From assembly GCA_017609205.1 (NCBI GenBank), contig JAFCEL010000001.1, positions 86,183 to 150,182 on the forward strand: 64,000 bases of DNA, given 5' to 3'. The stretch is from Candidatus Pacearchaeota archaeon (GTDB lineage Archaea; Nanobdellota; Nanobdellia; Pacearchaeales; GW2011-AR1). Positions 35,268 through 63,449 of this stretch are shown in pieces (the first letter of the stretch is position 1; the number at the start of each line of letters is the position of its first letter). The notes under the pieces were generated by a model. It searched no databases. It was not told where the DNA came from and saw nothing but the letters and a program-made list of their open reading frames with translations. Position numbers and translations under genes: made by a program.

Positions 35268-35268
35268 A

Positions 35269-36831: not shown

Positions 36832-36876
36832 AATTCCTTAGCAAAATATTTAATAAAGTGTTTTTCTTTTGATTAT

Positions 36877-39122: not shown

Positions 39123-39124
39123 GA

Positions 39125-42605: not shown

Positions 42606-43010
42606 ATGAGATTTAAATTCCTAGAACATACAGCAGACATAAAATTCCAAGCATTTGGCAAGAATCTTGAAGAAGTTTTTAAGAATTCTGCTTTAGCTAT
42701 GTTTAATGCAATGTTCAGCGGAAAAGTTAAAGAGAAAATTAGAAAAAAAATAACAGCAGAAGGCAAGGATAACGAGAGTTTGCTTTATAATTTTCTAGAA
42801 GAATTATTGGTCTTATTTGATAGTGAGGGATTCTTCCTTTCGAAGGTTATTAAAGTAAAAATTAAAAAAAGAAAAATAGAAGCAGAAGTTATAGGGGACT
42901 ACGCAGAAAATTACAAAATTCACGTCGATGTAAAAGCGATAACCTACAATGATATGTTCGTTACAAAAATTGGAAATAAATTTGTTGCACAAGTTGTGCT
43001 GGATGTGTAA
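42606..43010 (+). CDS. archease
   Basis: MRFKFLEHTADIKFQAFG N-terminus. Adjacent to rtcB. Confidence 0.85.
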   Translation: MRFKFLEHTADIKFQAFGKNLEEVFKNSALAMFNAMFSGKVKEKIRKKITAEGKDNESLLYNFLEELLVLFDSEGFFLSKVIKVKIKKRKIEAEVIGDYAENYKIHVDVKAITYNDMFVTKIGNKFVAQVVLDV

Positions 43011-43126
43011 AATGAGAGCTTTATCAGTAAAACAGCCACTAGCAAAGTTGATTGTTTTAGTAAAGGTAAAAGATATAAAAATAAAAAAGAGCTTGCTCAA
43101 TTTTGGGAATTTAACTTTTAATTAAA

Positions 43127-44545
43127 ATGGTAGGACTAAAAAAAATCTCTAAGAACGAGTGGGAAATTCCTAAAGAAGGAAAAATGCTTGCTCCTGCACG
43201 AATTTTTGCGAGTGAAAAACTTCTTAAAAAAATCAAAGAAGACAAAACAATAGAGCAGATTAAAAATGTCGCACAACTTCCTGGGATTTTAAAAATATCA
43301 ATTGCGCTTCCTGACGCACACCAAGGTTATGGATTCCCAATAGGAGGGGTTGCTGCCTTTGATTTAGAAAAAGGAATAATTTCTCCAGGGGGGGTTGGCT
43401 ATGATATAAATTGCTCTGTAAGATTACTAAAAACAAACCTAACAAAAAGGGATATCGTTAATCAACAGAAGAAAATTGTCGAGGGACTCTTTAGAAAAAT
43501 TCCATCAGGAGTTGGAAGAGGAAGTAAATTTCAGATTACAAGAAAGGAACTGAATAAAGTTCTAGAACAAGGTGCAAAATACATAGTAGAAAAAGGTTAT
43601 GGAGTTAAAGAAGACTATTTGCATACTGAAGAAGAAGGTTGTATTAAAGGTGCAGATGCGACAAAAGTTTCTGAGAGAGCAATTAAAAGAGGAATCGGAC
43701 AATTAGGGACACTTGGAGCAGGCAATCATTTTTTAGAAGTTCAATTCGTCGATGAGATTTATGACGAAGAGATTGCCAAAGTTTTTGGATTAAAAAAAGG
43801 CGATATTACAATAATGATTCATTGTGGTTCAAGAGGATTGGGTCATCAAGTTGCTTCAGACTACATTAAGTTAATGGAAGATAAATATGGTTTTAAGAAT
43901 TTACCTGACAGAGAACTAGTTAATGCACCAATAAAAAGCGAATTAGGAAAAAACTATTTTGCGGCAATGGCATGTGCTGCGAATTTTGCTTTTGCGAACA
44001 AACAAATAATCACTCACTGGGTTAGAGAAGAAATGAAATATTTATTCCCAAATATAAAGATTGATGTTATTTACGACGTATGCCATAATATCGCGAAGTT
44101 TGAGAATTTTATTATCGACGGAAAAGAACAAAAAGTCTGCGTTCATAGAAAAGGTGCGACAAGAAGTTTTGGTCCTGGAAGAAAGGAGGTTCCGGAGAGA
44201 TATAGGGAAATAGGACAACCAGTAATTATTCCGGGTTCTATGGGAACAGCATCATACTTATTAGTTGGAACAAAAAAAGCAGAAGAATTAACTTTTGGTT
44301 CAACTGCACATGGTGCTGGACGCATCTCTTCTAGAAGCAAAGCAATGAGAGATTTACGAGGAGAAGAAGTGAAGAAGAACTTAAGTAAAAAAGGAATTGA
44401 AGTAAAGTCAGGAAGTTGGAAAGCCCTTGCTCAAGAAGCACCTGAGGTATACAAAGATATTGATGAAGTAATAAAAGTTGTTGATGAAATTGGAATCAGC
44501 AAGAAGATTGCAAAATTAAGGCCTTTAACAGTCATCAAGGGTTAA
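43127..44545 (+). CDS. rtcB: RNA-splicing ligase RtcB
   Basis: GVGYDINCSVRL, GAGNHFLEVQ, HCGSRGLGHQV and GSTAHGAGR. Confidence 0.92.
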   Translation: MVGLKKISKNEWEIPKEGKMLAPARIFASEKLLKKIKEDKTIEQIKNVAQLPGILKISIALPDAHQGYGFPIGGVAAFDLEKGIISPGGVGYDINCSVRLLKTNLTKRDIVNQQKKIVEGLFRKIPSGVGRGSKFQITRKELNKVLEQGAKYIVEKGYGVKEDYLHTEEEGCIKGADATKVSERAIKRGIGQLGTLGAGNHFLEVQFVDEIYDEEIAKVFGLKKGDITIMIHCGSRGLGHQVASDYIKLMEDKYGFKNLPDRELVNAPIKSELGKNYFAAMACAANFAFANKQIITHWVREEMKYLFPNIKIDVIYDVCHNIAKFENFIIDGKEQKVCVHRKGATRSFGPGRKEVPERYREIGQPVIIPGSMGTASYLLVGTKKAEELTFGSTAHGAGRISSRSKAMRDLRGEEVKKNLSKKGIEVKSGSWKALAQEAPEVYKDIDEVIKVVDEIGISKKIAKLRPLTVIKG

Positions 44546-44574
44546 ATTTAAGAATCTCAAATACTAGATAAACC

Positions 44575-45456
44575 ATGGAATCAAAGGAGTCAGGGGGATT
44601 GTTAACAAAACCTCTTATTCTTATAGGCATTATTTTTATTTCTGCAATTGCAGTCAGTGCTTATATAAGCAATCAAAAACATAATTCTGGGAATATTTTA
44701 ATGAATGTTAATGGCCATAAAATGACATTGAAGGAGGCAATTGAAAACAATTTTATTTCTAAAGAAGCAACTCCAGATAAAGATTATACTACCTCGGTTT
44801 TAGTGGGTCATAATGCAAATGAGATTTGGGTTTCTGTCGACGGTAATGAGTCTACATTAGAACAAGCCATCAATGGTGCAGGTCTGTGTGGAAGTTCTAT
44901 TATTACATCTTATTCAAATCCAAAACCAAACCCAGGACATTATGCAGATGAAGTCGAGATTACTATTAATGGGGACACAAAAACATTGCAACAGGCAATT
45001 GACGATGGGGATTTTTGTAATAATTTTGTAAAAGATTGCAAAGCAGATGGCGGCGAAATTGCAGATTGTGGAGGAACTCTGTGTTGTAAATTTAGTGGTA
45101 GTTCTTGTCCAACAGGTCTTGGATGGATTTCAAATGGTTGGAGTGAAAGTTCTGCTCAAACGGTATGTGGATTAGCTAACGTTTATCCAAGTTGCACAAA
45201 ATTCACAGGTAGTTGTCCTACAAGTTGTTGCACAACTAGTTATCATACATGGAGTCATACTATGGTTAGAGAATATTGTTATGCAAGTGGGATGGCAAAA
45301 GGAAATTTACCAAATTGTTGTGAATGCAGTGGTTGTTCGAGTTCTCCTTACAGCTGTGGGGGCGACTGTCATGATGGCACCGCAATTTATCAATGTTGTT
45401 CAGGAACCTTAAGATTAAGTAATAAGCTAGTAAATGTCGGTTGCATAAAATCTTAA
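44575..45456 (+). CDS. membrane-anchored surface protein: triple TLxxAI module plus variable Cys-rich C-domain (paralog of 55253..56098)
   Basis: N-terminal anchor. Contains MTLKEAIE, STLEQAING and KTLQQAIDDGDFC. The C-terminal half has many Cys. Confidence 0.7.
   Translation: MESKESGGLLTKPLILIGIIFISAIAVSAYISNQKHNSGNILMNVNGHKMTLKEAIENNFISKEATPDKDYTTSVLVGHNANEIWVSVDGNESTLEQAINGAGLCGSSIITSYSNPKPNPGHYADEVEITINGDTKTLQQAIDDGDFCNNFVKDCKADGGEIADCGGTLCCKFSGSSCPTGLGWISNGWSESSAQTVCGLANVYPSCTKFTGSCPTSCCTTSYHTWSHTMVREYCYASGMAKGNLPNCCECSGCSSSPYSCGGDCHDGTAIYQCCSGTLRLSNKLVNVGCIKS
44908..45017. repeat. 110-bp near-identical inverted repeat, copy 1
   Basis: 109/110 identical to the reverse complement of 55659-55768. 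Encodes SYSNPKPNPGHYADEVEITINGDTKTLQQAIDDGDF. Confidence 0.9.
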
Positions 45457-45720
45457 TCTGTATAAAAATAGTTTTACAATACACAACTTTACAGAACTAA
45501 TGGTTTATCTTGGAATTGTAGTAATTTTTATGCCTTTACCTAATCCATTTACATTTTTTCTTTTTCTTATTTAATTTCCCTTTATGATATATAGGCCCTA
45601 TTTGGCATTCAGGAATAATGCAAAAAATGACACAATATAAACAAGGGGCATGAACTTCAAATCAATGTACTGATTATGGAACGTATGAAACTTTAAAAAC
45701 CATTTTTTCTTTTTATACTT

Positions 45721-46653
45721 ATGAAACATAAACCAAAGATAACAATAATTCTTCTGGCAATGTTTGTTATTACGCAGTTTATCGGGCTTTATGTTGTGGA
45801 TCATTATTCTAAAACAAAAATTATCGACGGAAAAGTACAGAATGTGTCTGCTCCAGAATTGCCTTTTGGAATGGATACTCCTAGGATAGAGAAAGAAAGA
45901 GACTATTACTCTTTGTTCCCTTTTTTGATAATTGCGTTTGTTATTGCAATATCTTTGTTTATTATCTTTACTAAGTTTAATTTTGATTTTATAATCAAAC
46001 TATGGTTTTTTATTGTGGTGGCTATGGCACTAGGAATTTCATTTAATTCTTTTTTACCTGGAACTCATTATTCATCAATAATTGTCCTAGCAATGGCTAT
46101 TCCTCTTGCATTCATTAAAATATATCAGAAGAGCCTCTTGGTTCATAATCTAACTGAATTGTTTATTTATCCTGGGATTGCAGCGGTTTTTGTTCCAATT
46201 CTAAATATCTACACTGTCATTGTACTTCTTATCTTAATCTCACTTTATGACATGTGGGCTGTATGGAAGTCAGGGATAATGCAGAAGATGGTAAAATACC
46301 AAACAGAAAAATTAAACCTTATGGCTGGGTTTTTTATTCCCCATATTGACAAAAAAACAAAAGAAAAAATAAAAAAGATGAAAAAAACCTTGAGTAAGGA
46401 GAAATTAAAGAAGAAAAGAATAAAAATTAACGTGGCTCTTTTAGGCGGAGGAGATGTGATTTTTCCAATAATAACTGCTGGAGTCATGATGAAAACATTT
46501 GGGTTTTTATCGTCAATCTTTGTTGTAGCAGGAGCGACTCTTGGCTTGGGATATTTATTCTTTTTCTCTGAAAAAAAGAAATTCTATCCTGCAATGCCTT
46601 TTATAACAGCAGGGATCTTTTTAGGAATAATCCTAGGTTGGTTTGTAAGTTAA
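45721..46653 (+). CDS. presenilin/signal-peptide-peptidase-like intramembrane aspartyl protease
   Basis: LYDMWAV (YD), LLGGGDVIFP (GxGD) and YPAMPF (PAL-like), across about 9 hydrophobic helices. Confidence 0.8.
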   Translation: MKHKPKITIILLAMFVITQFIGLYVVDHYSKTKIIDGKVQNVSAPELPFGMDTPRIEKERDYYSLFPFLIIAFVIAISLFIIFTKFNFDFIIKLWFFIVVAMALGISFNSFLPGTHYSSIIVLAMAIPLAFIKIYQKSLLVHNLTELFIYPGIAAVFVPILNIYTVIVLLILISLYDMWAVWKSGIMQKMVKYQTEKLNLMAGFFIPHIDKKTKEKIKKMKKTLSKEKLKKKRIKINVALLGGGDVIFPIITAGVMMKTFGFLSSIFVVAGATLGLGYLFFFSEKKKFYPAMPFITAGIFLGIILGWFVS

Positions 46654-46732
46654 TATCTCAGACCCATAATGTTCTCACTTTATAAAAGTAACAAATAGAA
46701 AGATTTATAAAAGAGTATTTCTGTGAATTATT

Positions 46733-47002
46733 ATGAGATATGAATTAAGAGTTTCACATAAGAAAGGAATAACTTATGATACTACTAATTTAGTGAAGCA
46801 TATAGAAAAATCTGTACCTGGTGTTAAATCAGGAGATATTGAATTCAAGGTGATATATCCAATTATGGGATTTGAGGACGGACCAAGAAAGGCAACTAAA
46901 GCTAAATTATCTTTTTTTGGAAATTCTTTTAATCCAGCAGAAATTATGAGTGAAATCTGCGAAAGAGGGTATTACATAGAAGCTTCTAAATTAACCAAAT
47001 GA
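46733..47002 (+). CDS. hypothetical protein
   Basis: 89-aa ORF ending 1 nt before the TrmB paralog. Confidence 0.4.
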   Translation: MRYELRVSHKKGITYDTTNLVKHIEKSVPGVKSGDIEFKVIYPIMGFEDGPRKATKAKLSFFGNSFNPAEIMSEICERGYYIEASKLTK

Positions 47003-47003
47003 A

Positions 47004-47783
47004 ATGTTAATCCATAAAGAATTAATCAATAAGATTAAAGATTATTTTGATTTGAATTTATATGAGACGAAAGTCTGGTTAGCTCTGCTTGGAAAAGGCA
47101 TGGCATCTGCTGGTGAAATTGCAGAAATATCAGGAGTCCCTCGCTCAAGAACATATGATGTGCTTGAGAGTTTAGAGAAAAAAGGATTTGCAATCGTTAG
47201 ATTAGGAAAGCCTGTAAGATATATTGGTATAAAACCAAAGATAGTCTTAGAGAAATTAAAAAACAATATAAAAAAAGATGCAGAAAACAAAATTAAAGAC
47301 TTATCGAATATAAAAGAAAAAAATGAATTTATTGAACTTGAAAAATTATACAAGGGAGGGATTTCTCCTGTGAAAAGAGAAGATCTTTCTGCTTCATTAA
47401 AAGGAAAATCGAATATTACCTCTTATCTTAGAGATATTTTGCAAAATGCAAATAAAGAGGTTATAATATGCACAAATGCTGAAGAAATAAAATCAAAATT
47501 TAAGCTATTCGAACAAACATTTAATCTCCTCAGTAAATCAGGTATAAAAATAAGAATCGCTCTATATGGTGATGAAAAAGCAATAAAGGAATTATCAAAG
47601 AAATTTAAAATCAAGATAAAAAAAATAGATATTGATACAAAATTCTTCATAATTGACAGAAAAGAAATTCTGTTTTATCTCTCAAAAAGTTCAACTAACG
47701 ACGATACTGCAATCTGGCTTAATTCTGAGTTCTTTATTCAAGCATTTATATCTATGTTTGAAAGAGCGTTTAAGAATAAATAA
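47004..47783 (+). CDS. TrmB-family transcriptional regulator (second copy)
   Basis: LYETKVWLALLGKGMASAGEIAEISGVPRSRTYDVLESLEKKGFAI. Confidence 0.8.
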   Translation: MLIHKELINKIKDYFDLNLYETKVWLALLGKGMASAGEIAEISGVPRSRTYDVLESLEKKGFAIVRLGKPVRYIGIKPKIVLEKLKNNIKKDAENKIKDLSNIKEKNEFIELEKLYKGGISPVKREDLSASLKGKSNITSYLRDILQNANKEVIICTNAEEIKSKFKLFEQTFNLLSKSGIKIRIALYGDEKAIKELSKKFKIKIKKIDIDTKFFIIDRKEILFYLSKSSTNDDTAIWLNSEFFIQAFISMFERAFKNK

Positions 47784-47785
47784 AA

Positions 47786-49069
47786 TTATTTAATAATAAT
47801 CTTAGAAATACCCATGTCATTAATCTTCTTTTTATTATCCTGTTTCCAGAGATTAAGAAATTTTCTGATTGTAAAATTAATTTTTTCTCGTGCATGAATT
47901 CTTCCTCCTCTAATAAAAGTATTCCTATGTTTATGTCTGAATAAATTGAGGTTAATCTTATCTTCTATAAAAGGTCCGACATAAACAATTTCTTTCTTTG
48001 CTTTAATAACAAAAATATATCTCGCAGACTTCTTTTTAGAATACTCAAAATATTTTTCTTTTATTTCAAAATATTTTTCAATTTCTTTTGCTAAATGTCT
48101 ATAGAATTTAAATAATTTGCTTCCTGCAACATCTCCTTCTTGCAATTTTGTTTTAACCTCAAGAATTATTATCTCGTAGTTATTTTTTTTGTTCTCTGAG
48201 TAAATCTTCTCAAGATCGATTTTTTCTACTTCAAAGGACCTTATTGAAGGATTTTCTAAGAATTTTTTACACTGATCCTTGAACTTCTCAAATGTTTCTT
48301 GAGAAAGGGCAGCCAAAACATTCCTTTGTTTATAAGTTGGATCGATTAAGATTATAGGGGATTGGAGTTTAGAACTATTCAAATCAAGCAAGATATTCTT
48401 CTTATTCTTGTGTTGCTTTTCAATATCAATGATTATTTTCTCACCCTTCCTAGAAGTTGCAATTGCCTTAATGAATTTTAAAAAACTCTTATAGTAACAG
48501 ATTAATAATTCCAGCCCATAGCCAGAAAAACCCCTTATATAGGATTCTGCTCCATAGCAGTTTTTTGCGTAACAGAATGCTTTCGCAAGCATAACTTCGT
48601 TTAAAATTTTCTCATTTTTTATCTTTTTATTTATGTATTTAACATGAGAATATGACAAATCAGTTATATTTTCTGCTTGTTCTGATTTTGTTATTTTTTT
48701 TACAGGAACAATCTCAAAGAATAATAAAGGAGAAACATTAACTTGGAAATAATCCCTTGACCCATGGACTTTTATAAAATTCCCAACGCCTTTCAGAATC
48801 TCTTCAGTCATCCCAGAGATTTCTTTGTTATTGTATTTTTTATCAAATCTAAGAAAGATATCAATATCATATCTGTCTTTCTTTATCATAGTTTTCTTAG
48901 AATAACTTCCCCCAACAAATATCTCTGCTTTTATATCGAGTGATTTGATCCTTATCTTAACTTTTTTCAAGAACTCTTTCAAATTCTTATCAATGAATTC
49001 CAAATCTTCTTTTGGAGGCCTAACCTTCTTTAAGGCTTCTTTTAGAATAGATTCTCTTTTTTTATCCAT
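47786..49069 (-). CDS. cca: CCA-adding enzyme (archaeal class I tRNA nucleotidyltransferase)
   Basis: VGGSYSKKTMIKKDRYDIDIFLRF NTase motif after an N-terminal VRPPKEDLE helix. Consistent with the tRNA lacking an encoded CCA. Confidence 0.75.
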   Translation of the reverse strand: MDKKRESILKEALKKVRPPKEDLEFIDKNLKEFLKKVKIRIKSLDIKAEIFVGGSYSKKTMIKKDRYDIDIFLRFDKKYNNKEISGMTEEILKGVGNFIKVHGSRDYFQVNVSPLLFFEIVPVKKITKSEQAENITDLSYSHVKYINKKIKNEKILNEVMLAKAFCYAKNCYGAESYIRGFSGYGLELLICYYKSFLKFIKAIATSRKGEKIIIDIEKQHKNKKNILLDLNSSKLQSPIILIDPTYKQRNVLAALSQETFEKFKDQCKKFLENPSIRSFEVEKIDLEKIYSENKKNNYEIIILEVKTKLQEGDVAGSKLFKFYRHLAKEIEKYFEIKEKYFEYSKKKSARYIFVIKAKKEIVYVGPFIEDKINLNLFRHKHRNTFIRGGRIHAREKINFTIRKFLNLWKQDNKKKINDMGISKIIIK

Positions 49070-49131
49070 AAAATATATATCAAAAAGGCTTTTTATATTT
49101 TTAACAATAGTTGAGAAAATTTATTTGGGGT

Positions 49132-49548
49132 CTAGTCTTTTTTCTGAGGATCTCTAATTTCCTTTATATCATTAATATTTCTTTTCAGTGTCGACGCTAA
49201 ATCAATAATATACTTTCCTTCTTCCATCTTGTATATTAATGGCCTATCTTTTCTAAATAAATTTACCAAGTCAATCTCAAATTTTCCTGAACCAATCGCT
49301 CTGACTGACTCCAAATCAAGAATAACAGGTGCTTCCTGATCTGTAATCCCTGCAATCTCCCTTACATCTCTTTCAATTTTTATCTTTTCTTTTTCAGGAA
49401 TTTCAATAATCGGTTCTTCTTTTATTCTCTCTAATTGCTCATCCCTAATATAAAAAAAGAATTTTCCTCCGCATTCTCCACATCCTTCTAAAAGCTCCCT
49501 ACTTCCTAAAGGGATAATTTTTTTGCAATGAACACACTGGTGTGGCAT
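49132..49548 (-). CDS. Zn-ribbon protein (archaeal DUF2072-like)
   Basis: CVHCKK...CGECGG ribbon at the N-terminus. Recognised from memory of the conserved GTPase neighbourhood; unverified. Confidence 0.5.
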   Translation of the reverse strand: MPHQCVHCKKIIPLGSRELLEGCGECGGKFFFYIRDEQLERIKEEPIIEIPEKEKIKIERDVREIAGITDQEAPVILDLESVRAIGSGKFEIDLVNLFRKDRPLIYKMEEGKYIIDLASTLKRNINDIKEIRDPQKKD

Positions 49549-49577
49549 AGAAAGAGAATTTCCTAAAGTTAATAAAT

Positions 49578-49916
49578 TTATCTGTGTTTTTGACGATAAT
49601 AACTTTCCAAACTATTCCAAATATTTTCTTCTATCCTTTGATTATCTCTATCACAAAAAGGGTCATCACAGCACGCGAGCTCTTCTAAACAACTAATACA
49701 ATAATGATAATTTGATTGTTCTTCCTTAAATTTATAACCACAATTAGAACAAAAGTTTCCTTCCTCATATCTCAAAACTTTAGCATTAAATCCGAACAAA
49801 GGTCTTAATCTTTCTAAATTCATAGAGACAAAAGCTTCAAGAATTTCTTCATTAGGAATTAAAGAGATAATACCTTCTATCTGTTTTTGATTCTTAAATA
49901 TATTAAGTAATTCCAT
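49578..49916 (-). CDS. Cys-rich zinc-finger protein
   Basis: CSNCGYKF...YHYCISCLEELACCDDPFC. Confidence 0.45.
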   Translation of the reverse strand: MELLNIFKNQKQIEGIISLIPNEEILEAFVSMNLERLRPLFGFNAKVLRYEEGNFCSNCGYKFKEEQSNYHYCISCLEELACCDDPFCDRDNQRIEENIWNSLESYYRQKHR

Positions 49917-49939
49917 TTTAATAAATCAAGAAGGTCCTA

Positions 49940-50347
49940 CTATTTATTCAACATTAATTCTATTTTTTTAGGATTTCTCTTAATCTCTTTAACTACTGTT
50001 GCTGGCCCTATTATGGTTATCGCACTTAGATCCCCTCCAGAAAGAATATTTACAAATTTTCTTCTGAACTTTGAAAAGAGTTTATCATCTCCATTTCCAG
50101 CAATAACTGCGAGTTCGATTCCCTTAAAACCTTTTACATGCCCAATCATAGCCATTGTATCTCCTATTAGCCTAGTTTCTTCTTCGGGCAACAATCTTCC
50201 TTGTAACAATAAAATATTATTCCCTAAAACAATCCCCAAGATTTTCCTTATTCTTTCATCGCTGTTTAAAATCCTTATCTCAGAATAAGGCATAAATTGA
50301 ATTGAAAAACCTTTTATTCTTCCTAAACTCTTTCTCTTTTTCTTCAT
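49940..50347 (-). CDS. conserved archaeal protein (DUF2073-like)
   Basis: ILLLQGRLLPEEETRLIGDTMAMI...FKGIEL pattern. Family recalled from memory; unverified. Confidence 0.5.
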   Translation of the reverse strand: MKKKRKSLGRIKGFSIQFMPYSEIRILNSDERIRKILGIVLGNNILLLQGRLLPEEETRLIGDTMAMIGHVKGFKGIELAVIAGNGDDKLFSKFRRKFVNILSGGDLSAITIIGPATVVKEIKRNPKKIELMLNK

Positions 50348-50390
50348 TTTATATTCTATTATATATTTTGGAAAATATACTTTTAAAATC

Positions 50391-51035
50391 TTACTTTATT
50401 TTCTTTGAAAGTTTAAAAATGGACTCATAAAATTCTTCAAGGTTTTTACCATATTTTGCACTTATTCCAATGACCTCGTATTCAGGGAATGCAGATTCTA
50501 TTTTCTTAATATTCGCTTTTTTTAAGTCTATTTTATTTGCAACTATCAAAACAGGAATCTTTCTTGCAATAAGATTTCCAATTATAGTAATATTTACCTG
50601 ATTATAAGGATTCTCGCATGCATCTAACACAACCACAACAATATTCATATCATCAAGCCATTTTATGCTCTCAACAACGCCTTGTGTTGCTTCTTTTGCT
50701 CTTGCTTTTGCATCACGTTTTTTCATTTTAAATTTTAGAAACTCTTCATAGTCAATTTTAGTTGCTATCCCAGGAGTATCAATCATTTTGAACACTAGTT
50801 TTTTTCCTTTATATTCGATTTCAACTTTCTCTTTAAACTGAACATTTCTCGTCTCGTGAGGTATCTTACTCACACTTCCAATTTCTTCCCCTGTGAAATC
50901 CTTACAGATTCGATTAGCAAGACTTGTTTTTCCTGCGTTTGGAGGTCCATAAAAACCCAATTTTATCTCTTTCTTATTTCTGAAGATATTCAGAAAAATT
51001 CTTTTGAAAAAATTCTTTACAATTCTTATTGCCAT
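50391..51035 (-). CDS. small GTP-binding protein
   Basis: G1 GPPNAGKTS, G3 DTPG and G4 NKID. Confidence 0.8.
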   Translation of the reverse strand: MAIRIVKNFFKRIFLNIFRNKKEIKLGFYGPPNAGKTSLANRICKDFTGEEIGSVSKIPHETRNVQFKEKVEIEYKGKKLVFKMIDTPGIATKIDYEEFLKFKMKKRDAKARAKEATQGVVESIKWLDDMNIVVVVLDACENPYNQVNITIIGNLIARKIPVLIVANKIDLKKANIKKIESAFPEYEVIGISAKYGKNLEEFYESIFKLSKKIK

Positions 51036-51059
51036 AAATTATCTTAAAATCAATCTTTA

Positions 51060-53720
51060 TTAAATTTTTCGTGCTGGAGTTACTCTTTTTATAGAAGGGT
51101 TCTTCTGAGAAACCTTATTTACATCCTTCTTTGGAACCAAATTCTTTACTTTATCAACGAACTTCATTACAGGTATCTCAACCATCCCTGTCCTTTTTCC
51201 GAGATATTTTTTGATAACATAATCAATTTGTTCTGACCTCCATCCTTGTTCTTTTAACTTGGCTTTTATTTTCTCATCACTTTCTCCTCTCTCTTTTGCA
51301 TTTTTAATATAAACAATAAGATTATACAAATCGTTTCTTTCTCTGAAGAGATAGTTTTCATATTTTCTCTTATACCACTCTTGTAAGAAAATATATGTCC
51401 CAAATCCTAGTAATAAAATAATCATTATAATCGCTACCAACCACCCCCATTTCATATTTTCTAATACCCTTGAAGGAGGCCTGAGAAGTTCTAATCTTTC
51501 AATCCCAGGAGATATAAAAACAGGGAGTTCAAAAAAATCAACATCCTCTGTAGTAGAAAATTCAATTATTTTCTCAGGAGAATTCATATCAATAACAAAA
51601 TATCCAGAACTTTCAGTTTCAAGATAGTTTTCTTTAAACATTAAATTTTCCATTTTTTTTATTATAATATAAGGGTCAGCATCCATTCCTTCTTTTGCTT
51701 TTAGGCTCAATTTGAATAAATTTACAATATCCTCCTGCATCCCACCATCATAAACTCCAGAGAGTTTTTCAGAACTTAATCTAACCTCAACATTTTTTTG
51801 TTCCCACATAAGAACAGCTTTTAGATAATCATCTTTTTCTTCAATAGGATAATTCCCATTACTTAAATTTCCCAATACCTCAAGATTGATATTCTCCTCC
51901 AAAGGGTAGAAGAGAAGGTTTTCTGTTTTTTTACTTGTAATAATTCTAGAGGGTATCTTTAAATCCAAAATTCTTTCAACAATCTGATTATACTCTTCTT
52001 CTGTGCTTGCAGAGGCATAATCTCTCTGAATTTGTTTGAATTCTTCAGTAACTTTATCAAGATTAATAACAGACTTTATTGCTTGTTGGTAAAAAACGTC
52101 TTTTGAGTTGATTTGCTCTTCGAGATTGGACAGGTCTTGTTGCATTTGCTCAATCTTTTCCTTTAGAAGTTCCTTTGGTGAAACTACAACAACATCAAAT
52201 TCTCTTGAAGAAATTCTTCCCAAAGTATCTTCAATAGTCACTCTCAAAATAAAAGTTCCTGTATCAGAATAAGTATGAGAGACTTTATTCGTTTGTGTTG
52301 TTTCAGTACTGTTATCTCCGAAGTCCCATTTATAACTTCTTATTTCAACATCAGAATCAAGAAGGATTCTAAAAGAAGTGGGAAACGCCGAAGCTGTTTT
52401 TGTAGGAATTAAATATTTTGGCTGAGGAATATCTTCTACAAAAATGTTCTCAGATAAAACATTCTCCCCATTTAATTTAAGGTCGAAAGTGTAATTACCA
52501 TATTCTGAAGGAGTCTTAAATCCAGCATAATCAAGGCGTATTTTTTGACTATCTGCTGTAACTTTTGCAGGAGATTCCTCTAATTCATAAAACTTATCCT
52601 CAACTATGTTCCCAAGAGAGGTTTCGTATTTAAGTTTGAGAGACTTAAGAATTATTCTTTGCTGTTCTCCTGATAAAATCTTAAATGGAATAATGCAACC
52701 TCCAGAGCAATTAAGCCCCTCATACCTGCTTGTTAAATAATCATTCATTTCTCCAGAGAGAGTGTTTCCATAAGAAATTGAGTTTGTTATATTCAAAATA
52801 CCGACGCTGTCAAATTTTCTCCCTTCAGCAAATATTCTAAAAGAAGCATCTTCATCCTGGATTCCCTCACCATAAAAACCACAACCATTTGCATCAGAGT
52901 AACCTTTTATCTTGGATGTCCCCTCTTCCTCAGAATAGACACAAACATAATACTCTTCTTTTTCCAAAAGAGGATGCTCAATCTCACAAGAGTATTCTTT
53001 TGCTGTTGTTAGATTTGTTATTTCACACACGCCACCTTCAACTGGCTCTCCGTCGGGCTTATAGAGAGCAATTTTTATACTCCGTGAATCCCCTTCTGGG
53101 TTTATCCATGCTCCCAGATTAAATCCTGCTGATGCAGACAGATTAATTCTTTGACAATGTTTATTTGGAAGTCTTCCTATAATATACTCATTTGAAGTAA
53201 TATTCTCATCAAAACATCCATAATCTCTCATAGAATCGCATGCCTCTAGAGAAGACTTTGAATTACCTGTTTCAATTGTTCCATCTAATCCAAAATCTAT
53301 TCTTATTTGATTATAACAGGATTTTCCTGCGTCACTTTCAACCACAAAATCAATAGAGTTAATAGCAATTATGTCTCCCTCTAATAAAAAACCAAAGATT
53401 TTCTCAGAGTCAATACCTATATCAAAACTTTTTTCAGTTTCTCCATTTAAAGGAGAATAATCAGAACTGCAATTTTTTATATTGCACGAATACTGAAGAT
53501 TTTTATTAGATTCTAAAAGATTAATCAAAGTTACTTTATTTCCAAAAGAATCAGAAAACAAAGAATTCGCTGGCTCTTTTTGAAAACTTAGATTAACCCA
53601 GCCCTTTATATTTCCTGAAGGCTTATAGTATTTATCAATTGAATAATCTCCAATCTTATAATCTGCACAAACAAAATTTACTAAGACGATGAATAGTAAA
53701 AAAATAACCTCTCTTTTCAT
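51060..53720 (-). CDS. large secreted PKD-domain protein with a C-terminal TM helix and cytoplasmic tail
   Basis: Signal peptide. YKWDFGDNSTE...HTYSDTGTFILRVTIEDTLG. A TM helix near the C-terminus is followed by a basic tail. Confidence 0.75.
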   Translation of the reverse strand: MKREVIFLLFIVLVNFVCADYKIGDYSIDKYYKPSGNIKGWVNLSFQKEPANSLFSDSFGNKVTLINLLESNKNLQYSCNIKNCSSDYSPLNGETEKSFDIGIDSEKIFGFLLEGDIIAINSIDFVVESDAGKSCYNQIRIDFGLDGTIETGNSKSSLEACDSMRDYGCFDENITSNEYIIGRLPNKHCQRINLSASAGFNLGAWINPEGDSRSIKIALYKPDGEPVEGGVCEITNLTTAKEYSCEIEHPLLEKEEYYVCVYSEEEGTSKIKGYSDANGCGFYGEGIQDEDASFRIFAEGRKFDSVGILNITNSISYGNTLSGEMNDYLTSRYEGLNCSGGCIIPFKILSGEQQRIILKSLKLKYETSLGNIVEDKFYELEESPAKVTADSQKIRLDYAGFKTPSEYGNYTFDLKLNGENVLSENIFVEDIPQPKYLIPTKTASAFPTSFRILLDSDVEIRSYKWDFGDNSTETTQTNKVSHTYSDTGTFILRVTIEDTLGRISSREFDVVVVSPKELLKEKIEQMQQDLSNLEEQINSKDVFYQQAIKSVINLDKVTEEFKQIQRDYASASTEEEYNQIVERILDLKIPSRIITSKKTENLLFYPLEENINLEVLGNLSNGNYPIEEKDDYLKAVLMWEQKNVEVRLSSEKLSGVYDGGMQEDIVNLFKLSLKAKEGMDADPYIIIKKMENLMFKENYLETESSGYFVIDMNSPEKIIEFSTTEDVDFFELPVFISPGIERLELLRPPSRVLENMKWGWLVAIIMIILLLGFGTYIFLQEWYKRKYENYLFRERNDLYNLIVYIKNAKERGESDEKIKAKLKEQGWRSEQIDYVIKKYLGKRTGMVEIPVMKFVDKVKNLVPKKDVNKVSQKNPSIKRVTPARKI

Positions 53721-53755
53721 CTCTAAAAATAGTAATTCTCTTTTATAAAATTATC

Positions 53756-55171
53756 TCATCTTTTTGTTTTAGATTTCTTTTTCTTAGACAAAAGATAATA
53801 AATAATTACAATAATCCCCAAGGCTATTAAAATACTAATAATAGAAAACAAAGGAAGTAATGCTGCAACAGGACAAGGAATCCTATTAGTCCCTTCTTGC
53901 TCACATGCTCCGAAATTATCATTAGGATCATAATGCCAATTCCCAGAACCATTAGGCTCTTCAATCCATCCTGGCTCTCCTTGTTTTTCACTTCCGAAAA
54001 TATTTCCAGAATCCCATGTGTAAATGCCCAACCAGGAATACTCTAAAAACCCATCTTCACAATCATCAGTAGTATTCTCCTTATAAAAACAACTTCCAAT
54101 TACAACAGGATTTTCATCACTACAATTTAAATTATCTGTTTTAGATGGTCCACAATAACCATCAACCCACTCACACGAGCAAGTATACCATATCTGGCAA
54201 TTTCCATCAGTAAAAACTTCTCCGCAAGAATCTCCTCCATCATTGTTTTCAATACTTATGCTCGCAACACTGCAGATATCTGCTTCACAATCTTCTTCTG
54301 AAGTGTAATCTCTACATATTCCAATTGAACTACAAAAACTATCTCGATTTATTAAATTGAACTGAATATTATTGCTTGAAAAATCCAAAACATTAAAATA
54401 AAAATTATCAAGTTCTCCTTCTAAAGGGCTCTCTAATGCTTTATCTATATCCTCTTGAGTTACAGTCCATAAGGCTTTTGCATTTCCTTCTGAATCAACA
54501 GTTGCATTAATAGTCCTCAGATATCCATAACCCATAAGATCTTCTTCATAGATATCAAAACCAACTATTGTCCCTTCAGACAATCCAGAATTCTTTAAAA
54601 CCATCATTAATTGAGTAGAACCAACAACAACATCATAAGTTCCATCTATCATACCCTCATCACTATCTGCCCAATAAGCAATTGCTTCATCTACACATTG
54701 TCCGTCTATAAATTCTTGTGCTGTACCGCATACCCCTTCACAACATATTTTCACAGGATAATCTCCTGCTTCTCCAATATGGGCATCTGTTAGATTTGTC
54801 AAAGACAAGACTTCTAATTCTGTAGGATTACAAGAATCTCTGTTTGTACAAACCAGATTCTCATAACAAATAGGATTATCATAGTTATTATAATCAGGGA
54901 TTTCAGCGTGAGAATTTGTTCTATTCTCAAGTTTTATTATCACATTCCCTAATGAACAGTCAGTACTTCCTGTTCCAAAATTACAGCACAAAACATAATC
55001 ATAATTCCCTTCACTAAGAAGCTCTCCATGTGCATTTGTCGGCGCAGATAATCCCATAATTTCATTATAAGCACAAGAGACTTTTGGAACAATTGTACAA
55101 TTTTCAGCAGAAATATTCGCAAGTAGCAAGATTGTTAAATAAATAAAAAACATCACCCCTATCTTCTTCAT
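53756..55171 (-). CDS. secreted Cys-rich protein with TNAH-triplet N-domain (paralog of 31178..32299), C-terminally anchored
   Basis: SAPTNAHGEL...YDYVLCCNFG, ENRTNSHAEIP...NPICY and LTNLTDAHIGE...KICC. C-terminal TM helix plus KKKKSKTKR. Confidence 0.75.
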   Translation of the reverse strand: MKKIGVMFFIYLTILLLANISAENCTIVPKVSCAYNEIMGLSAPTNAHGELLSEGNYDYVLCCNFGTGSTDCSLGNVIIKLENRTNSHAEIPDYNNYDNPICYENLVCTNRDSCNPTELEVLSLTNLTDAHIGEAGDYPVKICCEGVCGTAQEFIDGQCVDEAIAYWADSDEGMIDGTYDVVVGSTQLMMVLKNSGLSEGTIVGFDIYEEDLMGYGYLRTINATVDSEGNAKALWTVTQEDIDKALESPLEGELDNFYFNVLDFSSNNIQFNLINRDSFCSSIGICRDYTSEEDCEADICSVASISIENNDGGDSCGEVFTDGNCQIWYTCSCEWVDGYCGPSKTDNLNCSDENPVVIGSCFYKENTTDDCEDGFLEYSWLGIYTWDSGNIFGSEKQGEPGWIEEPNGSGNWHYDPNDNFGACEQEGTNRIPCPVAALLPLFSIISILIALGIIVIIYYLLSKKKKSKTKR

Positions 55172-55252
55172 GTTTGTTTTAAGAAAATATGTTTTATAAA
55201 TTTAATTGTATCTTTGAAGAGAATATATAATTAATCAATAGAGATTAATAAA

Positions 55253-56098
55253 TTATAATTTGCAAAGTACAACACCAGGTCCTCCAGTTATAGGGTCTCT
55301 TAAACAAGCACCACTACTACTTGTGCAAACATAAGAGGAGGGGGTTTCCCAATAACAGCCAACACATAATTGGGCATCTGTTCCAAAATTATCTTGGCAA
55401 CATTGTTGCCCTGTAATTCCAATACAATCCTCCATATATACACATTGGTAATTATATGTACAATCTTGTGTTTTTGAACAAACTCCTCCACAAAAACTAC
55501 AATCAACATTCTCTACAAATGTTCCATCCAAATACTTTCCACAAGTTCTAGTAATTGTTTGAGTTCTTCCAGATTCCAAGTTCTGACAATAACCACACTG
55601 GCTTCTTGTATTATAATTCCAATCAGAATATTGATAAGTGTAAGTATAAACAGGCTGGCAAAAATCCCCATCGTCAATTGCCTGTTGCAATGTTTTTGTG
55701 TCTCCATTAATAGTAATCTCGACTTCATCTGCATAATGTCCTGGGTTTGGTTTTGGATTTGAATAAGAAGTTGTGGGTGTGCTTCCGCATAGATTATTTG
55801 ATGCAATTGCATCTGCTAAAGTCATTTCATTTCCATCAACAGAAACCCAAATCTCATCAGGATTATGTCCAAAACTAACAGAAGTTGTTCCAGAGCTTGT
55901 CGGTGCACTTGCATTTACCCTTAAATAATCTCCTTCAATTGCTTCCTTTAAAGTCATTGTTTTTCCATCGATGTTAACAAGAATATCGCTTGAAGAATGT
56001 TTTTTTCCATAAATCCCTGCGTAAATAATCATTAATGTAAAAACTATGCTAAGAAGAAATGCAGCAACTATTCTCAGTTTTTCTGTCTCTAACTTCAT
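55253..56098 (-). CDS. membrane-anchored surface protein: triple TLxxAI module plus variable Cys-rich C-domain (paralog of 44575..45456)
   Basis: Contains MTLKEAIE, MTLADAIA and KTLQQAIDDGDFC. The C-terminal domain is unrelated to that of its paralog. Confidence 0.7.
   Translation of the reverse strand: MKLETEKLRIVAAFLLSIVFTLMIIYAGIYGKKHSSSDILVNIDGKTMTLKEAIEGDYLRVNASAPTSSGTTSVSFGHNPDEIWVSVDGNEMTLADAIASNNLCGSTPTTSYSNPKPNPGHYADEVEITINGDTKTLQQAIDDGDFCQPVYTYTYQYSDWNYNTRSQCGYCQNLESGRTQTITRTCGKYLDGTFVENVDCSFCGGVCSKTQDCTYNYQCVYMEDCIGITGQQCCQDNFGTDAQLCVGCYWETPSSYVCTSSSGACLRDPITGGPGVVLCKL
55659..55768. repeat. 110-bp near-identical inverted repeat, copy 2
   Basis: Reverse complement of 44908-45017 with one synonymous difference (GGA vs GGG Gly). 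Confidence 0.9.
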
Positions 56099-56128
56099 AG
56101 TTATAACACTTATTTGGGGTTTTTAAAT

Positions 56129-56287
56129 TTAATGCAAAAATATTGCTAAGAATATTCTGAATAAAATAATAAAGATAACAAACAAAATTACATGCATTGG
56201 TTTTAAATTGAATTTGCTCGGATATTCTTCTCCAAACCTCATCAATCCCCCAAATCCTCCGGGAAGATTTACTCCTGTATTTGCCAT
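56129..56287 (-). CDS. preprotein translocase subunit Sec61-beta (52 aa, not in the ORF track)
   Basis: MANTGVNLPGGFGGLMRFGEEYPSKFNLKPMHVILFVIFIILFRIFLAIFLH. Has the GL(M/I)R(F/Y)..E motif followed by a single TM helix. Confidence 0.65.
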   Translation of the reverse strand: MANTGVNLPGGFGGLMRFGEEYPSKFNLKPMHVILFVIFIILFRIFLAIFLH

Positions 56288-56337
56288 ATTCTCAAAAAGA
56301 GCAATAGTTTTTAAAAGTTTCTTGATTGGATTAATCT

Positions 56338-58719
56338 ATGAGTAAAAATATGACTGATTTTAAGCCAATTGAAAGAAAATGGAAAGAATTTTGGGAAAAA
56401 GAGAATATCTATAAATTTGAGCCCAATTCAAATAAGAAAATTTTTTCAGTTGATATTCCCCCACCAACAATTTCAGGACGATTGCACATGGGGCATGCAT
56501 TTGGAGATGCACAACAGGATTTTTTTGTAAGATTCAAACGAATGAGAGGATTTAATGTTCTTGTTCCTTTTGGCACAGATGATAATGGACTTCCAACTCT
56601 GAGATTAATTGAAAAAGAGAAGAAAATCGACTCAAGAAAAATGAAAAGAAGTGATTTTATTAACATCTGTTTAAAAACGATTAAGGAAGAATTTATTCCA
56701 CAATTTCTAGAAGATGAAAAAAAACTGGGAATTTCAAATGATTGGGATATATTTTATTCAACAATAGACGAGAGATCAAGAAAAATTTCGCAATGGAGTT
56801 TTATTGATTTATATAAAAAAGGGCGTGCTTATAGATTAAATTCTCCTGCTCTTTGGTGTACAGAATGTCAAACAACAATTGCACAAGTAGAGTTAGAAGA
56901 TAAAGAAGAAGAAAGCACATTTAATGATATAATCTTTAAAGCAGAAGATGGAAGTGATTTAATAATTGCTACGACAAGACCTGAATTCTTGCCTGCCACT
57001 GTAGCATTGTTTTTTAATCCAAAAGATAAGAGATATAAGCATTTAATTGGAAAAAAAGCCAAAGTCCCCTTGTTTAATTATGAAGTTCCAATCTTAACTG
57101 ATAAAAGTTGCGACCCTGAAAAAGGAACAGGGCTTATGATGGTCTGTACTTTTGGAGATCAAGAAGACGTTGAGAAATATTTAACTCATAAACTACCCTT
57201 GAAAGAACTTATCACAAAAGATGGAAAACTTTCATCAATTGCTGGAAAATATAAAGGTATGAATATAAAAGACGCAAGAAAAGCTATTATTGCAGACTTG
57301 AAAAAAGAAAAACTATTAGTAAATCAAAAGAAAATTACTCATGTTGTAAATACTCATGAAAGATGCGGGAGAGAAATTGAATTCCTTCCCCACAACCAGT
57401 GGTTTATTAAATACCTCGATTTAAAAGATGGTCTGATAAAATGGGGTAAGGAAATAAAATGGCATCCTTCTTATATGATTCATAGATATATTAACTGGGT
57501 TAGAGGGCTAAAATGGGATTGGTGCATCTCAAGACAGATTCCCTTTGGAATTCCTTTTCCTGTCTGGTATTGCAAAAAGTGTGGGGATGTTATCCTTGCA
57601 GATGAAAAAGACCTTCCGGTTAATCCTCTCGAAGACAAACCTCCTGTTAAAACCTGTCCAAAATGTAATTCAAAAGAATTCGTTCCTGAAACAGACATTA
57701 TGAACACATGGGCAACTTCTGCTTTAACTCCTACAATTATTAAAGATCTTCTTAAGGGAACAAAAGCTTATGAGAAAATCAAGAATAAACCAATGACAAT
57801 TAGAAGAAACGGGCACGACATTATAACTTTTTGGGATTTTAATACAATTGTAAAATCAAGATTACATTATGGTTACAATCCCTGGGAAGAACTTTTTATT
57901 AATGGATGGATTCTTGACGGAAAAGGAAAAAAGATGTCAAAATCAAAAGGAAATGATATTCCTCCTCAAAAAATATTAGAGCAGTGGGGAGCAGATGTCT
58001 TGAGATACTTATCCGCAGCAGCAAAACTTGGAGAAGACCTGAGTTTCCCAGAAAAAGAATTAACTGCAGGAAAGAAATTCATCACTAAACTAACTAATGC
58101 TACAAAATTTGTTCTAGCAAATCTTAAAGATTACGACGGAAAAAAACCTAAAAAACTAGAGAGGCTTGATGAATTATTTCTAAATCAACTCAATAAATCC
58201 ATAAAAACCTGCACACAAAACTTTGAATCTTATGAATACTCAAAAGCAAAATTTGAAGCAGAAAATTTCTTTTGGAAAAATTTTTGCGATAATTATCTCG
58301 AAATTATAAAGAAGAGAATTTATAATGAAAAAGGCGATAAGAAAAAATCAGCACAATACACCCTCTACCATTCCCTGCTAACAATAATTAAACTAATGGC
58401 TCCTATTACTCCATTTATTACAGAGGAGATTTATCAAAATTACTTTAGGAAATTTGAAAAAGATAAAAGCATCCATATATCTCCTTGGCCAGAAGAAATA
58501 AAAATTAGGGAAGTGGATGAAGAAGAATTTAACTTAATGATAGACATAATCTCAAGAGTTCGTCAGGAAAAAACAAAAGCAAAAAAGCCTATGAATGCTG
58601 AGATTGTTTTGGTGCTAAATAAAAAAGACCAAGAAAAATTAAAAGATATTCTAGAAGATTTAAAAAATGTCGTTAATGCTAAAGAAATAAAACAGGGAAG
58701 TTTTAAAGTAGAATTCTGA
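56338..58719 (+). CDS. valS: valyl-tRNA synthetase (archaeal type)
   Basis: PPPTISGRLHMGHAF (HIGH), GTDDNGLPT and KMSKSKGN. Confidence 0.8.
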   Translation: MSKNMTDFKPIERKWKEFWEKENIYKFEPNSNKKIFSVDIPPPTISGRLHMGHAFGDAQQDFFVRFKRMRGFNVLVPFGTDDNGLPTLRLIEKEKKIDSRKMKRSDFINICLKTIKEEFIPQFLEDEKKLGISNDWDIFYSTIDERSRKISQWSFIDLYKKGRAYRLNSPALWCTECQTTIAQVELEDKEEESTFNDIIFKAEDGSDLIIATTRPEFLPATVALFFNPKDKRYKHLIGKKAKVPLFNYEVPILTDKSCDPEKGTGLMMVCTFGDQEDVEKYLTHKLPLKELITKDGKLSSIAGKYKGMNIKDARKAIIADLKKEKLLVNQKKITHVVNTHERCGREIEFLPHNQWFIKYLDLKDGLIKWGKEIKWHPSYMIHRYINWVRGLKWDWCISRQIPFGIPFPVWYCKKCGDVILADEKDLPVNPLEDKPPVKTCPKCNSKEFVPETDIMNTWATSALTPTIIKDLLKGTKAYEKIKNKPMTIRRNGHDIITFWDFNTIVKSRLHYGYNPWEELFINGWILDGKGKKMSKSKGNDIPPQKILEQWGADVLRYLSAAAKLGEDLSFPEKELTAGKKFITKLTNATKFVLANLKDYDGKKPKKLERLDELFLNQLNKSIKTCTQNFESYEYSKAKFEAENFFWKNFCDNYLEIIKKRIYNEKGDKKKSAQYTLYHSLLTIIKLMAPITPFITEEIYQNYFRKFEKDKSIHISPWPEEIKIREVDEEEFNLMIDIISRVRQEKTKAKKPMNAEIVLVLNKKDQEKLKDILEDLKNVVNAKEIKQGSFKVEF

Positions 58720-58783
58720 TTTTGTTAAAATTGGGAGGTTATTTATTCACCAATTTTATAAACCCTTTTTCTTTGTCTAAATT

Positions 58784-59869
58784 ATGCCATTAACAAAATC
58801 AGAACTTAAAGAAATTATTGAAGAGTTGAGAGAACATAAAGGAAGACATACAGAATTAATCAGCGTCTATATTTCAGAAGGATATGATGTAAATTCTGTC
58901 CAGAAACAACTTGAAGCAGAGAAATCAACAGCGAAAAATATTAAGTCTACAGCCACGAGGAAAAATGTTATTGATGCTTTAGAAAAAATTGTTAGATATC
59001 TTAAAACTTTAAAAAAAACACCTGAAAATGGGCTGGCTCTATTTGCGGGGAATGTTTCAAAAGTTGAGGGACAAAATGATTTGCAATTATGGGCAATTGA
59101 ACCTCCAAAACCCATTAAAGTTCGTCTTTATAGATGCGACAAAGAATTTGTATTAGAGCCTTTGGAAAGCCAGTTAGAAGTTGATGAAGTTTTTGGACTT
59201 CTTGTTATGGACAGAAAAGAAGCAACTATTGGGCTACTTGAAGGAAAAAGAATCGAAGTTTTGCATAAAATGACCTCTGGAATTCCGTCGCAGATTAGAG
59301 CAGGAGGTCAATCCTCTCAGAGATTTCATAGAATCACAGAAGGTTTAACAAAAGAATTCTACAAAAGAATTGCAGAAGAAATGAAAAAATGCTTTTTTAA
59401 CATGCCCAGATTAAAAGGAATCCTCATTGGAGGACCAATTCCAACAAAAGATGAGTTTATCGAGGGAGAGTACATGGTTACAAAACTAAGAGAGAAAATT
59501 ATTGGAAGACTTGACATTGGCGGCTCTGATGAATCTGGATTAAAAGAACTCGTAGAAAAATCCCAAGACATTCTCGCTCAACAAGAGATTATTCATGAAA
59601 AAAGAATTCTAGAAAAATTCTTCAATACCCTTGGAAAAACTCCTGATCTCTCAACCCTAAAAGAATCAGCGACGAGGAAAGCTCTTGAATTAGGTGCAGT
59701 TGATACTCTGCTTTTATCTGAAAATACAAACAAGAAAACAATAAAAGAACTCAAGAAATTGGCAGAGAATATCGGTTCTACAGTTGAGATTATCTCTAAT
59801 GAGACTGAAGAAGGCCAGCAATTCTCAAATCTTGGAGGTATAGGTGCTATTCTCAGATTTTCTGTTTAA
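58784..59869 (+). CDS. prf1: peptide chain release factor aRF1
   Basis: NIKS motif (AKNIKSTATRKNV) and GGQ motif (RAGGQSSQRF). Confidence 0.88.
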   Translation: MPLTKSELKEIIEELREHKGRHTELISVYISEGYDVNSVQKQLEAEKSTAKNIKSTATRKNVIDALEKIVRYLKTLKKTPENGLALFAGNVSKVEGQNDLQLWAIEPPKPIKVRLYRCDKEFVLEPLESQLEVDEVFGLLVMDRKEATIGLLEGKRIEVLHKMTSGIPSQIRAGGQSSQRFHRITEGLTKEFYKRIAEEMKKCFFNMPRLKGILIGGPIPTKDEFIEGEYMVTKLREKIIGRLDIGGSDESGLKELVEKSQDILAQQEIIHEKRILEKFFNTLGKTPDLSTLKESATRKALELGAVDTLLLSENTNKKTIKELKKLAENIGSTVEIISNETEEGQQFSNLGGIGAILRFSV

Positions 59870-59910
59870 GGTTTAATAACTCTTTTAAACATTAATTCTT
59901 TTTCTAAATA

Positions 59911-60435: not shown

Positions 60436-60436
60436 A

Positions 60437-62328: not shown

Positions 62329-62374
62329 ACTCTATCACAGCAATATTAAAAAACAAAAGAGAAGATTCTCCTTT

Positions 62375-63103: not shown

Positions 63104-63149
63104 ACCTTACCAACAGAAACTTTTTAAACCAAAATTGTTCTAATTTATA

Positions 63150-63413: not shown

Positions 63414-63449
63414 TACAAATTCTTATTAATTCTCTATTCTTAACCCAAT

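Follow-up and report, generated by a model that had tools for sequence, protein, structure and literature searches.

Recent gene conversion between inverted paralogs of an uncharacterised secreted-protein family flanking a 10.6-kb block of opposite orientation in related DPANN archaea

What keeps a stretch of 110 bp nearly identical in two genes that have otherwise diverged, and what can recombination across it do when the two copies face each other over 10.6 kb of chromosome? The question is raised by a 64,000-nt segment of Candidatus Pacearchaeota archaeon (GCA_017609205.1, contig JAFCEL010000001.1, positions 86,183-150,182, forward strand), called the window below, in which the repeat lies inside gene A (44575..45456, + strand) and gene B (55253..56098, − strand). 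A first-pass annotation had described it as a 109/110-identical inverted repeat with a single synonymous GGG/GGA difference, sharply bounded and placed in frame at the junction of N- and C-terminal domains, and this description proved exact. Direct comparison of patch copy A (44908..45017, +) with the reverse complement of patch copy B (55659..55768, −) gave 109 matches in 110 positions. The sole mismatch, at offset 65, is GGG in gene A and GGA in gene B (A for G at window position 55703) and leaves perfect runs of 65 and 44 nt on its two sides. Both copies are read in codon phase 0, encode SYSNPKPNPGHYADEVEITINGDTKTLQQAIDDGDFC and form the third, last repeat of the N-terminal module (N-module), which terminates at the N/C domain junction. 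The codon preceding the patch is already unlike in the two genes (ACA vs ACT), and on the 3′ side similarity falls to background directly past the Cys codon (TGT/TGC). The inverted arms returned by a repeat finder were longer (44883-45017 and 55659-55793, 135 nt, 91% identity), with 11 of their 12 mismatches lying in the 25 nt 5′ of the patch. Outside its two copies, the patch has no 14-mer in common with the 64-kb window, which holds no third copy, and the exact 32-nt patch core had zero matches in a metagenome contig collection, so that no further strain-level junctions were added.

Both copies are real, separate loci and do not derive from assembly collapse. A Joint Genome Institute (JGI) contig from another sample (L001) corresponds to window 42855-45744, from RtcB through gene A to the start of SPP, and is identical except for a 26-nt deletion in rtcB, while L002, which belongs to GCA_017608185.1, matches window 45631-64000 collinearly with 66 substitutions (99.5% identity). 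Each runs through its own patch copy into the unique flanks of that copy, and the copy-specific base recurs, that is, the G of copy A in L001 and the A of copy B in L002. Together, the two contigs confirm the whole arrangement and both repeat copies.

The patch identity stands out against the rest of the two genes. Outside the patch, 28 of the 50 degenerate codons that specify identical residues in genes A and B differ synonymously, so synonymous sites look saturated there, while inside it only 1 of 36 does (binomial P=6.8e-12; Fisher P=9e-8); nucleotide identity is 99% in the patch and 56% outside. No RNA-structure signal was detected in the patch (fold z=+0.65), which ruled out an RNA element there. 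The synonymous contrast and the lack of such a signal together point to recent copying of DNA from one gene to the other and establish the patch as a recent ectopic gene-conversion tract between genes A and B. Gene conversion had already been proposed in the first-pass annotation, and it was borne out both by the synonymous-site test and by the same junction-bounded identity in paralogs of other genomes (see below). The 3′ end of the tract lies where the homology of the two genes stops, at the N/C domain junction, and the 5′ end is just the place where the conversion broke off. Conversion of the tuf genes of Salmonella is likewise bounded by the end of homology (PMC5485169), and thus the sharp 3′ edge needs no special explanation.

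Genes A and B are, by sequence, old paralogs in an uncharacterised family of DPANN-archaeal secreted or surface proteins. The 293-residue product of gene A consists of a signal anchor, three repeats of ~40 residues (N-module, residues 1-148; HMM match E=8e-74) and an orphan Cys-rich C-terminal domain, and the 281-residue product of gene B carries the same kind of N-module followed by a degenerate Cys-rich domain related to the thrombospondin type-1 (TSP1) domain. The two proteins share 60% identity across their first 146 residues and are unrelated thereafter. No Pfam domain was found in either protein, and among the open reading frames (ORFs) of the window the N-module profile matched only these two. 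Searching 1.84 billion proteins with the same profile returned 582 representative clusters (401 at E<=1e-10), in which the N-module is almost always N-terminal, in proteins of 117-663 residues. All named sources are DPANN archaea (Pacearchaeota, Woesearchaeota, Iainarchaeum), and the few names given to members are 'hypothetical protein' or 'thrombospondin type-1 domain-containing protein'. The typical member has a signal anchor, 1-3 repeats of ~40 residues (PNPGH..E..V...G..KTLQQAIDDGDFC) and a Cys-rich C-terminal region, the N-module ending at about residue 142 across 134 members. The patch region is the most conserved stretch of the family, KTLQQAID..FC being invariant in the seed/family alignment. 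AlphaFold2 predicted residues 1-150 of the gene B protein (window 55649-56098) with a predicted local distance difference test (pLDDT) score above 90, as a helix (residues 3-30) followed by three units of a beta-hairpin plus a short helix, and a Foldseek search with this model found no PDB entry at E below 1. A literature search on the family (DPANN with thrombospondin) found nothing relevant. When the C-termini were clustered by BLAST, 96 of 130 members, gene B included, joined one TSP1-related group and gene A remained a singleton; the term 'hypervariable', used earlier for these domains, is therefore too strong.

Homogenisation up to the domain junction was also seen in family members of other genomes. 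In locus L044, two tandem paralogs (P0161 and its 280-residue neighbour; 9963-10428 vs 10833-11299) share 467 nt at 97.9% identity, including a perfect run of 396 nt; the shared stretch extends from 38 nt 5′ of the ATG to 3 codons beyond the junction Cys, and the C-termini are unrelated from there on. The paralogs on either side of the homologue of cys471, the Cys-rich protein gene next to gene B, in L050 share 419 nt at 82% (~97% over the first 90 nt) and diverge past DFCCTDT, and a tandem family pair in L042 shares 216 nt at 89%. In L043 (GCA_043810775.1), a 520-nt direct repeat of 84% identity (1916-2434 vs 15755-16273) was found around the family member P0065.

The position of genes A and B gains meaning from gene order in related genomes, where orthologies were checked by tblastn. 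With > and < indicating the strand, the window reads T2SSF T2SSF o227 o159 <beta-helix archease> RtcB> geneA> SPP> orf89> TrmB> <CCA <OapC <orf112 <OapB <GTPase <PKD886 <cys471 <geneB <Sec61beta ValRS>, ValRS being valyl-tRNA synthetase. L047 (GCA_043817815.1) reads T2SSF T2SSF .. archease> RtcB> cys479> PKD> GTPase> OapB> OapC> CCA> <TrmB <SPP, and L051 has the same order from the start through OapC. L045/L046 and L044, which lie on one 183-kb scaffold, follow the L047 order except that additional genes come after RtcB and that SPP is succeeded by two family genes, and L030 reads archease> RtcB> cys568> PKD>. The block from cys471 to SPP is thus inverted in the window relative to RtcB and the pilus locus when compared with L047, L051, L045/L046 and L030. 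In these relatives RtcB is followed by cys471-PKD, at a gap of 35 nt in L047, 46 nt in L030 and 188 nt in L051, without an intervening family gene and SPP. In the window, genes A and B occupy the two junctions of the inverted block, which corresponds to the segment that recombination across the patch would flip. What is new here is that, by gene order, the block cys471-PKD-GTPase-OapB-OapC-CCA-TrmB-SPP follows RtcB in opposite orientation in four related genomes. RtcB identities (84% between the window and L047, 82% between the window and L045, ~76% for L051 and ~60% for L030) place the window among the genomes in which cys471 comes first, so the orientation of the window block is probably the derived state. 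The more distant L005 has a window-like orientation relative to the pilus locus, which suggests, by pairwise identities only, that more than one inversion event took place.

Thus, inverted paralogs lie at both ends of a conserved 10.6-kb block that is flipped relative to the closest available relatives. The most economical explanation would be RadA-type homologous recombination between the inverted paralogs, which would have given rise to the conversion and, at some time, to the inversion as well. The prerequisite is present in the inverted arms with their perfect runs of 65 and 44 nt, a length that would probably suffice for RadA. As the ends of the block are located at or in genes A and B, an inversion mediated by the paralogs is plausible as an evolutionary event. 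The substrate before the inversion would have been RtcB> fam> cys471> ... <SPP <fam (fam, family gene), and such an arrangement is plausible since both adjacencies exist in relatives, family gene to cys471 in L014 and L050, and family gene to SPP in L044, L025 and L050. We consider it fairly probable that conversion and inversion both came about by homologous recombination of the inverted paralogs, and that the locus is a substrate for rearrangement with no demonstrated programmed switch.

Several observations weigh against this explanation. L047 and L051, the closest cys471-first genomes, have no family gene at either junction, hence gene gains must be assumed in addition, and the arrangements of L050 (fam> cys478> fam> SPP>) and L052 (<fam cys473>) are not explained by a simple flip between two paralogs. 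The N-modules of genes A and B (N_A and N_B) are 60% identical to each other and ~45-55% identical to those of relatives, values that do not separate a breakpoint inside the genes from an intergenic one, and their identities to the position-specific copies in L050, L014 and L044 gave no orthology signal either way. Identity comparable with that of the patch was not seen in the multi-paralog loci L009, L012, L031, L039 and L041. Finally, the inversion is common to the 99.5%-identical strain and goes back much further than the patch identity has to, so conversion and inversion may be unrelated.

The last point leads to the alternative in which only the conversion is due to the paralogs. The patch would then be a by-product of sporadic ectopic conversion in the best-conserved motif of the family, the inversion would have arisen by unrelated illegitimate breaks in intergenic regions, and genes A and B would have been carried along whole with it or inserted later. 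Besides the age of the inversion, which predates what the patch identity requires, and the absence of family genes from the L047 and L051 junctions, this is supported by the behaviour of the locus as a rearrangement hot spot with at least four configurations (the window, the L047 type, L050 and L052). However, inverted paralogs placed exactly at both ends of the block are what a repeat-mediated inversion predicts and would be a coincidence under random breaks; we therefore regard this alternative, in either form, as possible but unlikely.

A wider proposal starts from the whole family: proteins with the triple-repeat N-module would constitute a recombination-driven diversification system, in which the paralogs of a genome keep the same nucleotide sequence as far as the DDGDFC junction. 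We hold this to be unlikely. Were it true, general recombination would reshuffle the adhesin-like C-terminal domains and, between inverted pairs, also the block, which would give archaea an equivalent of the sap and polymorphic-toxin systems, next to a pilus locus that host-dependent cells may use for attachment.

Less probable still, and not supported, is an active inversion switch working without a recombinase, as put forward in the first-pass annotation. Here selection would keep the patch identical, and flipping by RadA at a useful frequency would swap the C-terminal domains and the downstream surface genes between two expression contexts. The in-frame inverted repeat at a domain junction, the occurrence of both block orientations among related genomes, the junction-bounded homogenisation of family members in other genomes, and the neighbourhood of a type IV pilus-like locus and other surface proteins are all in line with it. 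Nevertheless, all three assemblies of the species (the window, L001 and L002) show a single orientation, and the differences in orientation that were seen separate genomes with only ~50-88% identity in their shared proteins rather than members of one population. The earlier claim that recombination across the patch inverts 45018-55658 thus stands in principle, and as a difference between the window and four related genomes, but not within the species. An exact look-up of the alternative combinations of N-module and C-terminal domain (N_A-C_B and N_B-C_A), a check proposed earlier, found neither among ~15 billion proteins, which is weak negative evidence. Further silent copies of the patch, also envisaged earlier, were absent from the 64-kb window by both the 14-mer and the N-module profile searches, so no silent cassette was found there, and among the 39 related loci checked no inverted repeat around family members resembled the identity-sharing pair of the window.

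The expression contexts, moreover, look nearly equivalent. Genes A and B each have an ATG, a signal anchor and a near-identical TATA-like box, TAAATTTAA(G/A)AA, 27-30 nt upstream; with its own start, anchor and box on both genes, a flip would only swap two 60%-identical N-modules between the two domains. Judging from these elements, both C-terminal domains are probably expressed in either orientation and the genes would stay intact after the flip. The cys471 and PKD genes have TATA-like boxes of their own ~25 nt upstream of the ATG, which leaves unproven the 'operon' that was said to join gene B with these two downstream surface-protein genes. Taken together, the single orientation, the missing chimeric proteins, the equivalent promoter-like boxes and the lack of silent cassettes in the window argue against the switch, which we rate as improbable and treat as speculation.

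An assembly artefact, that is, identity created by the collapsed or chimeric assembly of two diverged paralogs, had been named in the first-pass annotation as a finding that would overturn its proposal. In two contig versions of a related metagenome-assembled genome, 20 or 22 nt are missing exactly where the patch begins on its 5′ side, which suggests trouble for the assembler at this point. However, the assemblies from other samples cross each copy into unique flanks and preserve the copy-specific G or A, a reproducible single-base difference that collapse would erase, and this explanation is therefore very improbable. A dedicated enzyme system that keeps the repeat, either a site-specific invertase as in the Hin, Fim and shufflon switches or a diversity-generating retroelement of the kind carried by DPANN archaea, was rejected as extremely improbable: ~110 nt is within the range of template repeats and the lone mismatch is A vs G, but no recombinase, integrase, invertase, resolvase or reverse transcriptase was found among the Pfam matches of the genes between the arms and of the other scanned window ORFs of at least 150 residues, the mismatch affects just 1 of 41-42 adenines, conservation in the family is highest in the repeat and variability is not, and both copies are coding sequence in the middle of a gene.

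Some variants of strains and assemblies were recorded along the way. The 20-nt deletion in the 99.5%-identical GCA_017608185.1 removes 55754..55773 (−; L002 position 10034) and straddles the 5′ edge of patch copy B; it has CCA microhomology at its flanks and splits gene B into ORFs of 117 and 177 residues. From a second version of the GCA_017608185.1 contig (42,995 nt), the loss of 22 nt at this site can be deduced, the ORFs there being of 187 and 92 residues, and the protein identifiers P0004, P0014, P0253 and P0007 are tied to the split gene. Either gene B has truly become a pseudogene there or the assembly went wrong at the boundary of the repeat. The 26-nt deletion in rtcB of L001 (at ~462, window ~43311-43336) takes away some of the conserved PDAHQGYG stretch, and the gene is called in two pieces; being odd in a housekeeping gene, it may be an assembly error at low coverage. 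In species-representative metagenome-assembled genomes, 6 of 11 family genes lie within ~1.5 kb of a contig end (L004, L006, L008, L010, L012 and L013), a hint that short-read assemblies often break at family genes, owing to repeats or strain variation.

The segment that recombination across the patch would flip (45018..55658) was annotated from its ORFs and from the Pfam matches of L002, which has identical order. Besides the C-terminal parts of genes A and B, it holds SPP (45721-46653, +), orf89 (+, between SPP and TrmB), TrmB (47004-47783, +), a CCA-adding enzyme (47786-49069, −), OapC (49132-49548, −), orf112 (−, between OapC and OapB), OapB (49940-50347, −), a GTPase (50391-51035, −), the PKD protein PKD886 (51060-53720, −) and the Cys-rich protein cys471 (53756-55171, −). 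The fixed left flank (42606..44545, +) consists of archease and RtcB, gene A starting 29 nt past the RtcB stop. The fixed right flank (56129..58719) consists of a 52-residue Sec61beta-like ORF (56129-56287, −), located between ValRS and gene B, absent from the ORF list and assigned by eye from MANTGVNLPGGFGGLMRFGEEY.. and a C-terminal transmembrane helix, and of ValRS (56338-58719, +); gene B lies 31 nt downstream of the small ORF. An ORF of the RecA/Rad51 family is situated at 62375-63103 (Pfam match on the collinear L002). Four kb upstream of gene A, an assembly locus resembling those of type IV pili and archaella (32682-40281) is syntenic in all relatives and includes a T2SSE ATPase (35269-36831), two T2SSF genes (37038-39122) and several small ORFs of 150-180 residues, maybe pilins; the T2SSE ATPase of L051 contains an intein with a LAGLIDADG domain. 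Between this locus and archease, a 737-residue secreted protein (40308-42521, −) with a PKD domain, a right-handed beta-helix and C-terminal EF-hand/dockerin-like motifs is inserted, which is absent at that position in L045, L047 and L051.

On present evidence, the locus combines ectopic conversion with repeat-associated inversion, a clean example but an ordinary one, in a DPANN protein family that had not been described before. DPANN archaea probably rely on contact with host cells, and hardly any of their surface proteins have been characterised; the locus offers a concrete, testable example of how such proteins may evolve. The family defined here comprises ~580 sequence clusters, has no Pfam model, and has a confidently predicted N-module that matches no PDB fold. 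Gene conversion homogenises its paralogs as far as a fixed domain junction, and in the window two of them mark the ends of a block whose orientation differs among related genomes. If both orientations were present in one population, the locus would become a candidate for recombinase-independent surface variation in archaea.

Three known systems invite comparison. The S-layer variation of Campylobacter fetus is said to depend on RecA-dependent inversion of sap genes without a dedicated recombinase (reportedly the work of Dworkin and Blaser in 1996-1997). The likeness lies in a surface-protein family with a conserved 5′/N-terminal part, divergent 3′ parts and oppositely oriented copies. In the sap system, however, the invertible segment carries the one promoter and there are several silent cassettes, so that inversion changes the protein made, whereas each copy in the window has its own start codon, signal anchor and promoter-like box, with no silent copies in 64 kb; the shared stretch is moreover 110 bp in mid-gene in the window, and ~600 bp at the 5′ end in sap. 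The C-termini of polymorphic toxins, including CdiA of contact-dependent inhibition (CDI) and Rhs proteins, swap at a conserved pre-junction motif (VENN, PxxxxDPxGL). A conserved peptide motif, KTLQQAIDDGDFC in our family, likewise borders a conserved N-terminal region and unrelated C-terminal domains, and its nucleotide homology can act as a handle for recombination; the corresponding trait is present here, as KTLQQAID..FC is invariant and the identity of the L044 paralogs stops at the junction. In contrast to CDI/Rhs loci, the window has no immunity genes, toxin domains or orphan C-terminal cassettes (no extra patch 14-mer or N-module match was found in it), and most C-termini of the family are TSP1-related Cys-rich modules.

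By analogy, the closest counterpart of the locus is the conversion and inversion of tufA and tufB in Salmonella enterica, whose concerted evolution and inversion were reportedly described by Abdulkarim and Hughes in 1996 and by Hughes in 2000. In both cases inverted paralogs would exchange sequence by homologous recombination, in tracts bounded by the end of homology and without a dedicated recombinase, and the same recombination can invert the segment between them and so make hybrid genes or operons. Homologous recombination underlies the concerted evolution of the inverted tuf paralogs, and as many as 50% of the recombination events invert the intervening chromosome (PMC5485169; PMC6735719). 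The scale is different, since the tuf genes are ~99% identical over ~1.2 kb and lie 761 kb apart, whereas genes A and B share 110 bp of identity, are otherwise ~56% identical in nucleotide sequence and are separated by 10.6 kb. The host is an archaeon, so RadA would act in place of RecA, and the products, known from sequence alone, are secreted proteins with unrelated C-terminal domains, which a crossover between genes A and B would shuffle.

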